A stretch of 64,000 bases of DNA, from the NCBI GenBank assembly GCA_951406725.2, contig OX597830.1, positions 1,426,001 through 1,490,000 of the forward strand, read 5' to 3'. Numbering within the stretch: position 1 is the first letter of the stretch; each line of letters begins with the position of its first letter. The stretch is from Octopus vulgaris (Eukaryota). Shown here in pieces: positions 19,354 to 53,211 of this stretch. The notes beneath the pieces are model-generated. The model was given only the letters and a program-made list of their open reading frames with translations. It was not told the origin of the DNA and made no database searches. Both the position numbers and the translations under genes were made by a program.

Positions 19354-19431
19354 GTGGTACATATGTTTCGGGCCTTTATTAGACAGATTTATAACAATGC
19401 ATAATATATGTCTGTGGCCTTCTTCAGCCGC
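19354..19431 (-). ncRNA. Type I hammerhead ribozyme motif
   Basis: Minus strand: GCGG CTGAAGA aGGCC ACAGA...TCTGT...GGCCc GAAA CATATG TA CCAC. Canonical core, palindromic stem III ACATATGT, GUA triplet, stem I GCGG/CCAC with one mismatch. Confidence 0.75.
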
Positions 19432-19439
19432 ATAAAAAT

Positions 19440-19676
19440 AGAAAAGAAAATATGTATTTGTCCGTCGCTACAGACAATGTCTTCTAAAATAAAAACTAAT
19501 TGCGACTATACTTTTAACACACAAATATACATACACATAGATATTTTACAGAATTTAAGCAGAGAAAAAGAGAAAAGAAAATATATATTTGTCCGTCGCT
19601 ACAGACAATGTCTTCTAAAATAAAAACTAATTGCGACTATACTTCTGACACACACATATACATACACATAGATATA
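19440..19676. repeat. Tandem duplication, about 105 bp with period 131
   Basis: GAAAAGAAAATATRTATTTGTCCGTCGCTACAGACAATG... at 19441 and 19572. Confidence 0.9.
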
Positions 19677-20318
19677 TTATTATTTTCTGTTTGAAAGAAC
19701 ACTAATGATAAAAAAATAAATAATATCTTCCTTACCTTACCGGCTGAGAGAGTACTTACGCGATTCTTTTTTATGAGAAAGGAAGATAGATAGACAAGAC
19801 AGTCCTTTTATACTCCTTAAGCGTATTTTGTAAACAAAAGGGATTTGAGTTTCGATTTAGCACATGCAACAGTTTGAGGAATACTTTCTGTATTTTCCTA
19901 AGCGATTTGGTATTAAGCAGCAAATTTTTCAGAGGCTTTTTTCAGAACACGCAGATATACATCAAAAACGAAAATATCCTGTGTCTTGTTGATTCACAGA
20001 CGAAGATTAAAATTCACTTCGAGTTCGGGAAAGTTACACACACGTGCGTTTTAACACGTGTATTCGCGAGTATGTTCTAGTTGCAAAATACTATGTCAAA
20101 AGCGAAAATATTCTTCTCAAATACAGTGACTTGTTGTACTTTCACTTATATTCGCTTTGCAGACAATTTCGCTTCTGATAACATCGATCTCTGGAAGGAC
20201 TTCTTTAATATTTAGGAGAGACACGTTAACACACTTGTTGTTAGTTCAGCGCCATCTTGTATATATACATATATATATATACATATATATATATACATAT
20301 ATATATATTATATATACA

Positions 20319-20580
20319 TTTGATTTTGATTTTTCCAGTTTCAGCTAATGAGCTGTGGCCATGCTGGGGCACCGCCATTTGGTTTGCTACACGGGTTTAC
20401 CTCACGGATGCTTTTTAGCAAACGCCATCTGATGCATCAGAGAGTTCGATGCAGCTGCCCTCATCTGCACCTCCTGCCGTGAAATTGGTTCATCCGGGAC
20501 ACCTGACAGGAAGAGAACCAGTCCTACTTTAAAGACATCCGAATCTACACCATGCAGGTCCCTCAGGTTCTTCGGGATAT
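20319..20580 (-). mobile_element. CR1/L2-group LINE copy A (3' 260 bp, AAAATC tail)
   Basis: [11 protein letters not shown]...VPDEP...RAAASNSL; 3'UTR nearly the same as copy E. Confidence 0.92.
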
Positions 20581-21093
20581 ATATACATATATATATATAT
20601 ATACATATATATATACATATATATATATATATACATATATATATATATACACATATATATATACACATATATATACACATATATATATACACATATATAT
20701 ATATACATATATATATATATATATATACATATATATATATACACATATATATATATACACATATATATATATATATATATACATATATATATATACACAT
20801 ATATATATATACATATATATATACACATATATATACACATATATATATATATACACATATATATATATACATATATATATATACACATATATATATATAC
20901 ATATATATATATACACATATATATATACACATATATATATATATATATATATATATATATATATATATATATATATATATATATATATATATATATATAT
21001 ATATATATATATATATATATATATATATATATATATATATATATATACATATATATGTATATACATATATATACATATATATATATATTTATA

Positions 21094-49873: not shown

Positions 49874-50040
49874 CAGTAATCCCTCGATTACTCCGTGGTG
49901 TACTTTTGCATTTATAATAAAATAAATATATACAAATAATAAAAATAAAAGGAAAATACAGTACTGTTTCTACTTCGCGGATTGACACCTATCGCGGGTG
50001 TTTCTGGAACGTAATACCTGCTATAGTCTAGGAATTACTG
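49874..50040. mobile_element. pogo/Tigger-like MITE
   Basis: TA then CAGTAATCCCTCG on the left, AGGAATTACTG on the right (inverted termini). Confidence 0.6.
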
Positions 50041-51326
50041 CCAATGTACTTCAAAGTAAAATTCAAATCATTTCTTTGTTTATATTACCTGTAAGCTAAT
50101 ACGTGAAATATTTGTATTCTACCATCTTTATATCCTTAATTTCCAATTAACTCGGTTGCAAAATGAGCTTAACAAACATCACACACTAATATCATTAAAT
50201 ACTTCGTAATTTTGTCGTACAGAGTTCGACACCTTTCATGTAGAGTTCAAATGTAAATTAATGGCAGTGCCCTTAATTTGGGTTATATGATCCTTATATA
50301 TCAGGTTACTCCAGGCCTCATTCAAGGACGTAGACAAAAGTAAACATTAAAAATCCTTTGCATAGGAAATATTCACGGAGTTCATGGTAATTTCGGTAAA
50401 CGTATGTGAAGACATGAAATACGTGAGCTCGTAATGGCAGATATATATGTTACTCCGCGCGCCTAATTACGGATCGTGGAATTAGAAATTAGCTAAAAAC
50501 GGCAGTTCTACAGATCTATTTGTTTCCTTCAGACACCAAGTAAAAATATTGGTTTTCAACGAAAAACTACGTCTGTTAAAGGGTAGCAATAACTCCAGTG
50601 TAAAATATGTAAGGATCTACAACACAAGCGGAAATGGAGAGGGAGAGGTTGAATATATATTTTTCTTTCCTTCCTCAATTGGCAAATGTATAAACAAGAA
50701 AATCGTGTTGGCTTATATAAGATATTCACTGAAAGTATAAGATGAGATTCATGATTTTTTTCCTCTTCTAAGTGAAGTATTGCTATTAACATATACAGCA
50801 TCTGTTTCAATATTCAGATAAATATTTATATTTATACAACAACACTCAAAACGTCTGACTTTGAAGAAAAATAGATTACATTATACTTTCATTTTATTAT
50901 AGCAACGAACAATAAGCTTAGTGTATTCAGCCTCTATCATATGAAATATATGGCTGGAGACACTTTCGAGGGCAATTCTTTTTTAAGTAAGACAACGGTT
51001 GATCACAACTCCATTAATATTCAAACTTATTTTGATAACCGCTTTTATGACTTTCATAGAATAGAACAAGAAGAGCAGCGGACAGAACTCCTCGGTGGGA
51101 GGATGTTATACTCGCAATGAAGAGACCTGACTCGATTCTTGTGACAGAATCTGCTAAACATTGAGTGGGGTGGTAGGGGCTAAATAGAACCACAGTTAAA
51201 TATTTCAGGTTTCGGTATATGTATATAACTATTTCTAAGATCCTAAGGAATAATAACTATCCCAGGTTATCAGGACATTTGCTATTTTACACTTTACTAA
51301 CGCAATGTAAACAGTATCATTTATAA

Positions 51327-51991
51327 TATTACAAATTCGGGATTTTACCGATAGAACTGCAACTCCTATTTCAGGATAACCTTATTGTATGGAACACACA
51401 TAGAAAGTTATATCCAATAAATAGAAGCAATTAAAAAACCTACTATAAAATACAATATATTTGCAAAAATATTTGAAAAAAAAATCAATATCACTTACCT
51501 GTTATTAGTCTGTGGGAAAAGAAGATTTTTAAATCCACCCGTGCCTTCCCAGACTGTTTATCTTATTGTTATTATTATTAATGGATCAAGGTTTAAAATA
51601 CATATAAGTCATCTTGAATAGAAAAAGTAATATGAATAAAAATATAATAAAAATATATAAATTGCAAATATATCTTTGAAAATTAGAAAATTACACAAAT
51701 TAATTTTTTTTAATTTAAAAAATTAAACACCTGAAATTACAACACCGATTATATAACGAAAATGCTAAACCTAAGGAAACCCTCAACGACTTTATTATAA
51801 ACACATCAAATCCTACAACCTATCTATATAAACATTACGGTAATTAATAATTTAGTGTAAGATTTACCCCTATCTATACAAGTATAAATTACCATTTTTT
51901 AAATAAGGAAGGATACTCCTCATTCCTGTGTAAATGGCTGCTCCTGAAATGGGAGTTGCGGTTCTATTTGTAAAATCCCAAATTTGTAATA
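51327..51991. mobile_element. Non-autonomous DNA transposon with about 50-bp TIRs
   Basis: 51327-51376 (TATTACAAATTCGGGATTTTACCGATAGAACTGCAACTCCTATTTCAGGA) is the near reverse complement of 51942-51991. Confidence 0.8.
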
Positions 51992-52044
51992 ATATTATAT
52001 ATATATATATATATATATATATATATATATATATAATTAAAACA

Positions 52045-53211
52045 AGATAAGAAAATGGAGAAATACATCTAAATCAAATATCGATTACCAGATAATACTC
52101 AATCACATACTTTATTAAGCCACCACATAAGAGACTGTAGAGTTAAACATAAAAAAGCAGAACAAATCAGTGTACACAAAGGAATGTACATAAAAAAGTG
52201 TACATAAAAGAGTAATGTTGTATAATAAGTAAAATATATATAAAAAAGAGAATATAAATATAAGTAAATATAAATATAAGTATAGATTACTTCTTACAGC
52301 TGTTTCGACCTGTAGATAAGTATGTCTCATTTTACCAATATTAGCCTTTTATGGTAGGTCAATATATGGATATAAATGAGACATTTACAAAAGTATCATA
52401 AGGCCTCTTCGGAGATATACATATACATATGAGTGCATATACTCACACTCCTATAGATATAAAAATATACATATACATAATAATGTAAATAAATAATATA
52501 AATTAGTAAACATATATATGTTCCACACTCAATGTTTCAGTTTTTCAACTTAATATTGTGATAATAAACATACACATATTAGTACCTAGATGCAAATATA
52601 CATGGTCAATAGTACATTATATTACTTCCTACTAATTTCCAAAGTGTCATTAAAGTTAGCATCATTATCGTTGTCAATACCATTAATGCTACCATCATTA
52701 TCATTCATAATATTATTAATAACGCTTACATTAGGATCCAAAGTGGCACATATGTATGTCCGGGTTCCATTTAGTAATTTTCCTTATGACATAAATACAC
52801 TATTGGATTTGAATTTAAATTATCATTGCCTTCCTCATGGTTGGTCTGTTGAGAGCCGCCCCTACACCGCACAAGAAAAACATACACATCCACATCCAAC
52901 CCTAAACCCACACGTCCACATAAAGACCCACACACACATGCACACACATGAGTAAACCCCGACACATCGCTACACATTCACTAAGAAGTAATATATACTT
53001 ATATTCTCTTTTTTATATATATTCTACTTATTATACAACATTACTCTTTTATGTACACTTTTTTATGTACATTCCTTTGTGTACACTGATTTGTTCTGCT
53101 TTTTTATGTTTAACCCTACAGTCTCTTATGTGGTGTTTTAATAAAGTATGTGATTGAGTATTATCTGGTAATTGATATTTGATTTAGATGTATTTCTCCA
53201 TTTTCTTATCT
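52045..53211 (-). mobile_element. Penelope-like non-coding element with 230-250-bp inverted arms and a hammerhead motif
   Basis: 52045-52296 is inverted relative to 52982-53211; the ribozyme motif sits at the inner edge of the left arm. Confidence 0.78.
52292..52416 (-). ncRNA. Type I hammerhead ribozyme motif (U4C core, about 100-nt stem II domain)
   Basis: Minus strand: TCT CCGAAGA GGCCT...ATGTCTCATTT...AAATGAGACAT...AGGTC GAAA CAGCTG TA AGA. Palindromic stem III ACAGCTGT. Confidence 0.75.

Follow-up and report, generated by a model that had tools for sequence, protein, structure and literature searches.

A 64,000-nucleotide stretch of Octopus vulgaris DNA (assembly GCA_951406725.2, contig OX597830.1, positions 1,426,001 to 1,490,000 of the forward strand; hereafter the window, numbered from its first letter) holds several dissimilar repeats that seem to share one architecture, that of the hammerhead ribozyme. 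This locus raises the question of which elements carry these motifs and whether selection maintains their fold. Our analysis indicates that they are in all likelihood type I hammerheads sitting at the 3' ends of Penelope-like elements (PLEs) with Hydra-clade motifs (families A and D) and of tandem repeats without open reading frames (ORFs) that are likely moved by the same enzymes (families B and C), and that they are predicted to cut as dimers only.

Five type I hammerhead motifs in four families

A descriptor scan of the window found five motifs, with C3 at 19427(-), 31947(+), 32536(+), 39977(-) and 52412(-), which fall into four high-copy families: A, B (two copies), C and D. The first-pass annotation, made from the letters alone, had described motifs of distinct sequence but one hammerhead architecture at five places, and all five were recovered. 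Each of them has CYGANGA, a closed stem II, GAAA, the stem III given in that annotation, and GUH. Since stem I is also present in 5/5, the topology is type I. The type I core (C3 U4 G5 A6 N7 G8 A9, G12 A13 A14, A15.1-U16.1, H17) is found in all five, position 4 being C in B and D (U4C). The stem II spans from A9 to G12 are 51, 61, 61, 30 and 99 nt for A, B copy 1, B copy 2, C and D, in agreement, as loop sizes, with the earlier statement that stem II closes 22 to about 90 nt.

In 300 block-wise dinucleotide shuffles of the window this descriptor matched only 0.077 times on average, and no shuffle reached four or more matches. About nine motifs had been announced for the 64 kb, a number that must be lowered to five: the loosest full descriptor added a single window site, 63623(+), at chance level (0.27 per shuffle), and scans of the window with a one-mismatch core or by homology added no motif.

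Searches against Rfam gave no hammerhead hit in the window at the gathering threshold, and none at E<=10 over B and C. Of the 247 Rfam matches in the window, the 150 examined were driven by microsatellites, nearly all of them to miRNA families, and were rejected. Elsewhere in the genome, at locus L121:2300-4600, seven compact hammerheads with a stem II span of 13 nt lie in both orientations in a 359-bp tandem array similar to a classical retrozyme. Rfam also gave no hit for this short-stem array, so the long stem II is not the sole cause of the failure.

Families A and D are protein-coding Penelope-like elements

Judging from their sequences, A and D are the 3' ends of PLEs with Hydra-clade endonuclease motifs. 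In five of the six long copies of A that were extended, the motif lies 1.8-2.1 kb downstream of the end of a GIY-YIG-type endonuclease (EN) ORF, and upstream walking placed the D motif 1.7-2.4 kb downstream of an EN-type ORF match in 8 of 30 loci. One locus of family A (L184) carries reverse transcriptase (RT) and endonuclease in two frames together with an inverted 5' piece, and an inverted copy is also present at L186. The C-terminal GIY-YIG-type EN of both A (L184) and D (locus L198) has the CxCx5C linker, CxxC and CxH, and the RT of A has DKT and YRDD; for D the last 241 aa were recovered, the RT lying outside this part, and the recovered sequence of A stops short of its N-terminus. The two proteins are related, with 30% identity. 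The ORFs went unrecognised in sequence searches of Pfam and PDB, and the proteins were identified by their motifs and by homologues, of which there are 2114, with PF26215 in most of those listed.

The insertions of A and D consist of an inverted 5'-truncated piece, a 3' tail, (TA)n targets and a hammerhead near the 3' end. Family A is at least 4.5 kb long because its 3' untranslated region (UTR) is 2.1 kb; this descriptive trait lies above the <3 kb of most Hydra elements (Craig et al. 2021, PMC8557442), the 3' UTRs of both A and D being about 2 kb here. A first-look genome search gave 223, 1564, 1720 and 1258 copy candidates for A, B, C and D. All four families are dispersed, and their best-scoring full-length matches are about 90-99% identical, identities that come from the best 40 candidates per family and are biased toward young copies. 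No pair of families showed significant similarity of stem II, and a kinship of A to D based on a common stem II start was dropped for this reason.

In the window, family A is represented by a 128-bp 5'-truncated 3' end of a protein-coding Hydra-type PLE (19304..19431, -), which begins at the 5' edge of stem I and ends in (TA)n. Its hammerhead (19354..19431, -) has U4, a perfect 8-nt palindromic stem III, a predicted cut after 19358 and one stem I mismatch; such mismatches, absent from the family majority, occur in the window copies of A, C and D. The D copy (52038..52984, -) comprises the 5'-truncated 3' UTR and end of a protein-coding Hydra-type PLE and also ends in (TA)n. Its hammerhead (52289..52419, -) has U4C, a stem II span 1 nt below the family majority of 100, decayed stems I and II, and a predicted cut after 52295. 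The inverted 5'-truncated piece of D (52994..53408, +) includes a 3' tail extension.

A further family, E, was seen at locus L187:3994-6690(-), where an open Hydra-type ORF of 899 aa has a linker without CxCx5C and a hammerhead with a 55-nt stem II lies 0.6 kb downstream; the insertion shows partial tandem and inverted ends.

Families B and C are tandem repeats without open reading frames

Families B and C are built of 589-bp and 566-bp units, respectively, arranged head to tail with one type I hammerhead per unit. No ORF and no match to or remnant of a PLE protein was found in either unit; the longest stop-free frames are 67 aa (B) and 77 aa (C), and the GC contents 36% and 34%. The 3' ends of B and C are alike, with about 70% identity over 160-190 nt (p = 0.005), and therefore their palindromes are not independent.

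The window copy of B starts with an inverted 5'-truncated piece (31560..31832, -; unit positions 226-498), followed by a partial tandem (31828..32816, +) of one full unit plus 400 bp, which ends at the commonest 3' end of the family and then runs into (TA)n. Both B hammerheads have U4C. Copy 1 (31941..32032, +; predicted cut after 32026) has G-U as its first stem I pair, and copy 2 (32530..32621, +; predicted cut after 32615) is its predicted dimer partner. The C copy is a partial tandem (39637..40305, -) of one unit plus about 100 bp. Its hammerhead (39921..39983, -) has U4, one stem I mismatch, a predicted cut after 39927 and a 10-nt stem III that is fully paired in the dimer by means of two G-U pairs.

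Copies of B and C lie on many chromosomes at 96-99% identity. Their 3' ends are clustered (13 of 40 at unit position 400 for B; 18 and 13 of 50 at two positions for C) and their 5' starts spread; inverted 5' pieces, two 3'-end clusters and (TA)n targets occur as in A, D and E. Spread 5' truncation, clustered 3' ends, inverted 5' pieces and (TA)n flanks are the anatomy given for Penelope-like insertions (PMC8557442, PMC11167929). B and C were likely mobilised by the same enzymes as Penelope-like elements.

Contigs of four runs that we guess to be RNA cover the B unit, and three of them span the head-to-tail joint, a joint that is also present in DNA, so that such contigs fit RNA circles and genomic tandems alike. 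In a test for a single template or circle, variants common to the units of one array were counted: 8 private variants were shared and 70 unit-specific in B, against 11 and 63 in C, in only 31 (B) and 39 (C) arrays with some overlapping loci unmerged. One tight pattern for the B/C clade gave 2,323 genome matches, compared with 9 in the control. Arrays of 10 and 12 units (545-546 bp) related to B and C were observed at C1:33100416-33105375 and C1:71597378-71603427.

Tens of thousands of motifs genome-wide

The genome was searched with patterns that fixed the core and demanded no pairing, for the class with an 8-nt stem III, the reversed pattern serving as control. The search gave 82,711 matches, compared with 10,418 for the control. 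By stem II span, there were 24,007 matches at 8-38 nt (control 3,180), 44,595 at 39-69 nt (4,819) and 14,109 at 70-100 nt (2,419), a few sites falling in two bins and other stem III lengths being uncounted. The excess over the control is about 72,000, or one per 39 kb, and 71% of it has spans of at least 39 nt. In sixty 10-kb stretches at fixed positions, 22 matches were found in 15 of the 60, one array accounting for seven, while 12 shuffles averaged 1.67; this sample extrapolates loosely to 95,000 motifs genome-wide.

The first-pass annotation had foreseen a very large unannotated population, to be doubted if hits were no denser than in shuffled sequence. The population is indeed in the tens of thousands and undetected by Rfam, and the density exceeds the shuffled control both in the window and in the sixty stretches. 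The supposed density was too high: the window has five motifs per 64 kb and the genome about one per 30-40 kb, or roughly 70,000-100,000 in all, and not the 390,000 that nine per window would imply.

U4C had been reported in two dissimilar families, which holds for sampled copies of both B (62/62, fixed) and D (46/48, near-fixed). Genome-wide it is a minority, with 3,604 of the 44,595 raw matches in the 39-69 bin, so that the window, with three of five, over-represents U4C; reversing the U4C pattern removes its CpG, which inflates the control. Since relatives of B and of D carry U4, U4C probably arose more than once, and it is probably a tolerated, slower variant of the core.

Pairing is kept while sequences diverge

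We then considered pairing that the patterns had not demanded. Among the first 30 consecutive genome matches of the 39-69 pattern, stem III was a perfect palindrome in 18/30 (chance 0.116) and in 26/30 when G-U was allowed (chance 0.205), stem I was present in 25/30 (chance 0.176) and stem II paired at 4/4 positions in 20/30 (chance 0.099); some of the 30 are related copies, and the outer two stem III pairs are set by the pattern. A set of 452 matches reduced to 34 sequence clusters, of which 20 have perfect palindromes, with nine different inner 4-mers, and 27 have stem I, whose pairs include all four Watson-Crick types across the 34 clusters.

Such pairing supports selection on the structure within families. 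The earlier proposal that independent palindromes with a retained core reflect selection thus stood as to selection, the undemanded pairing being above chance, and failed as to independence, given the likeness of the B and C ends and the relatedness of the A and D proteins. The families descend from related elements and their stem palindromes are compensatory divergence, an independent origin being unsupported.

In 36/58 distinct motif types, the core-proximal helix of stem II is 3-5 bp long and is followed by an internal loop or bulge. Such a geometry could dock, and may stand in for loop 2 in tertiary contacts between stems I and II.

Predicted dimer fold and alternative explanations

In folded monomers the pair probability of stem III was at most 0.13. 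In contrast, the minimum free energy (MFE) structures of homodimers of majority-type A, B, C and D all formed every stem III pair and four stem I pairs between the molecules. For the window B tandem transcript, the constrained double hammerhead was the MFE structure (-194.3 kcal/mol), with stem III pair probabilities of 0.82-0.98. As circles, the B and C units fold better than 40 shuffles (z = -5.1 and -4.3).

These predictions fit a model in which a single motif would be unable to close its 8-10-nt stem III, and two motifs in a tandem transcript would swap strands to give two complete hammerheads, with the long stem II as a rod outside the core. Cleavage would cut unit-length RNA from tandem or read-through transcripts, and this RNA may be circularised and then copied by the RT of the element. 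Selection would act on the few source copies of each round, and inserted copies would decay. Dimer cleavage and possible circularisation of unit RNA were proposed earlier (PMC4209133, PMC7229834).

Several results weigh against this account. In the tandem fold, stem II of B copy 2 is paired with a probability of just 0.29; the dimer MFE structures of the window copies of A, C and D fall short of the active fold; and the family E dimer keeps a competing hairpin, with 0/4 stem I pairs. The 5' starts of copies are not enriched at the predicted cut (3/111 within 3 nt; 1.35 expected). A comparison with the tails of six families revealed no autonomous partner of B and C (best p = 0.045, uncorrected), in a genome that holds many more families than these six. 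From the literature, catalytic mutants of an anole PLE left insertion in vitro unaffected (PMC11167929), 1/9 Xenopus retrozyme dimers cleaved in vitro (bioRxiv 10.64898/2026.07.22.740005), and U4C reduces activity in vitro (PMC3088659).

Some of these points would suit a fold that is kept for a role with little or no catalysis, for instance RNA dimerisation or binding of the element protein, with cleavage slow or dispensable for spreading. We regard this as unlikely, though it is the alternative to be taken most seriously: U4C is fixed in the young high-copy families B and D, a long stem II leaves no terminal loop 2 of the usual kind, insertions of several units contain uncut sites without any peak of 5' ends at the cut, cleavage was found unnecessary for insertion in vitro (PMC11167929), and the activity of PLE motifs is reported to be low (PMC4209133). 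Yet the cleavage-site position is H in the families found (a partly circular point, since the patterns demanded H), U4 dominates the genome matches, and PLE hammerheads did cleave (PMC11167929, PMC4209133). It seems still less probable that other machinery (LINE, local unequal crossover) moves B and C, as ribozyme satellites or retrozymes tied to PLEs only by a similar ribozyme. The tails without a sequence link to the six autonomous families, the lack of a protein remnant and the related arrays of 10-12 units, which could be local amplification, speak for it; dispersal over many chromosomes at high identity and the insertion anatomy in common with A, D and E speak against it. As for mere chance in an AT-rich, repeat-rich genome, the descriptors are relaxed, the reversed control is not CpG-matched and background is expected to make up about one in eight raw genome matches, but the window shuffles, the tight-pattern control and undemanded pairing far above chance refute such an origin, to which we give practically no credence.

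Type I hammerheads at the 3' ends of PLEs and of ORF-less tandems therefore remain our preferred reading. A bolder version, which we hold only tentatively and think rather doubtful as a whole, is that Hydra-clade hammerheads have radiated here into dozens of families with about 100,000 motifs, with stem II as a 40-100-nt rod and U4C fixed repeatedly, and that they act as dimer-gated ribozymes releasing and circularising unit RNA, B and C being currently mobile circular-RNA parasites of Hydra enzymes. If such an active radiation were real, it would offer a direct system to test whether cleavage and RNA circles make the tandem structure of PLEs.

Comparison with known hammerhead elements

Palindromic-stem-III hammerheads in Penelope-like and Hydra-clade elements are already published, so the motifs are known in kind, and what kind of thing they are is unchanged by our findings. 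New here are the majority with a long stem II, the family-fixed U4C, the scale, and the occurrence in one genome of young families of both kinds, autonomous and non-autonomous. Hydra-clade PLE hammerheads, including Hydra-1_Obim of Octopus bimaculoides (PMC8557442), have in common with ours the type I topology, the CUGANGA/GAAA core and a self-complementary AC...GU stem III of about 4 bp near the 3' end; their elements also have the C-terminal GIY-YIG with CxCx5C linker, DKT, CxxC, CxH and (TA)n targets. However, the 25 families listed there have stem II spans of about 12-26 nt (by eye) and all carry U4, whereas spans here are 30-100 nt and B and D carry U4C. Longer loops occur in two spike-moss elements, which the supplement of that paper flags as deviating.

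The PLE hammerheads and minimal hammerheads of Cervera and De la Pena (2014, PMC4209133) resemble the octopus motifs in their pseudo-LTR location, the many divergent families within one genome, copies that are mostly solitary and truncated, a dimer-type architecture, a palindromic 15.2-16.2 region and small palindromic helix III variants. They differ in a helix II of 7-8 bp, a mostly absent helix III and 2,000-9,000 copies per genome, compared with rods of up to 100 nt and about 70,000 motifs or more here. Stem III palindromes permitting dimers are also documented for repeat-type hammerheads (Perreault et al. 2011, PMC3088659). The same source describes U4C as a natural variant in a viroid, with lower activity in vitro but still infectious; here it has become fixed in families of the genome that each number >1,000 candidate copies.

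B and C are like non-LTR retrozymes (Cervera and de la Pena 2020, PMC7229834; Li et al. 2026, bioRxiv 10.64898/2026.07.22.740005) in that their head-to-tail units lack ORFs, are low in GC (34-36%), fold well and contain a single type I hammerhead, and PLEs were proposed as retrozyme mobilisers in both sources. The B and C units of 566-589 bp, known here from genomic DNA, lie above the 170-400 nt of the former source and inside the 51-972 bp of the latter. Inverted 5' pieces are prominent here, whereas the word 'inverted' is absent from the text of PMC7229834. With 126,247 hammerhead motifs in the axolotl (PMC7229834), the scale seen here has a precedent. An Rfam-based annotation of the giant squid gave 235 hammerheads (PMC6962438), a figure which, set beside our counts, suggests undercounting in cephalopods. 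A literature search covering hammerheads of octopuses, other cephalopods and molluscs, and hammerheads with a long helix II, turned up no report of these long-stem motifs in a collection short of most subscription journals; the supplements of PMC4209133 and of the 2026 preprint may list long-stem variants.

The role of hammerheads in PLEs and the mobilisation of animal retrozymes by PLEs are both still debated, and the octopus families bear on both. With young autonomous and non-autonomous families (96-99% identical) in one genome, natural pairs that differ in U4/U4C or in short/long stem II provide ready comparisons for cleavage assays. Standard models and short-loop descriptors would overlook most of one of the larger animal hammerhead populations.

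Other features of the window

Immediately upstream of the family A copy, at 19434-19679, lies a 131-bp tandem duplication (1.9 copies, 94%). Another endonuclease region of Hydra type occurs at 58510-60295(-) as three fragments separated by insertions, which abut a non-LTR element with zinc knuckle, APE and RT at 53976-58535(-); mismatch-core and homology scans found no hammerhead downstream of the fragments. Microsatellites of the (TA)n/(TACA)n type and fragments of LINEs abound in the genome (2.8 Gb). In the window, many LINE-like RT copies were observed (5823-6824, 12938-13696, 21187-23304, 27457-29234, 30031-31251, 35023-37877, 40535-41490 and 42018-43973), several of them from one young family, in both orientations and flanked by long (TA/TACA)n tracts.

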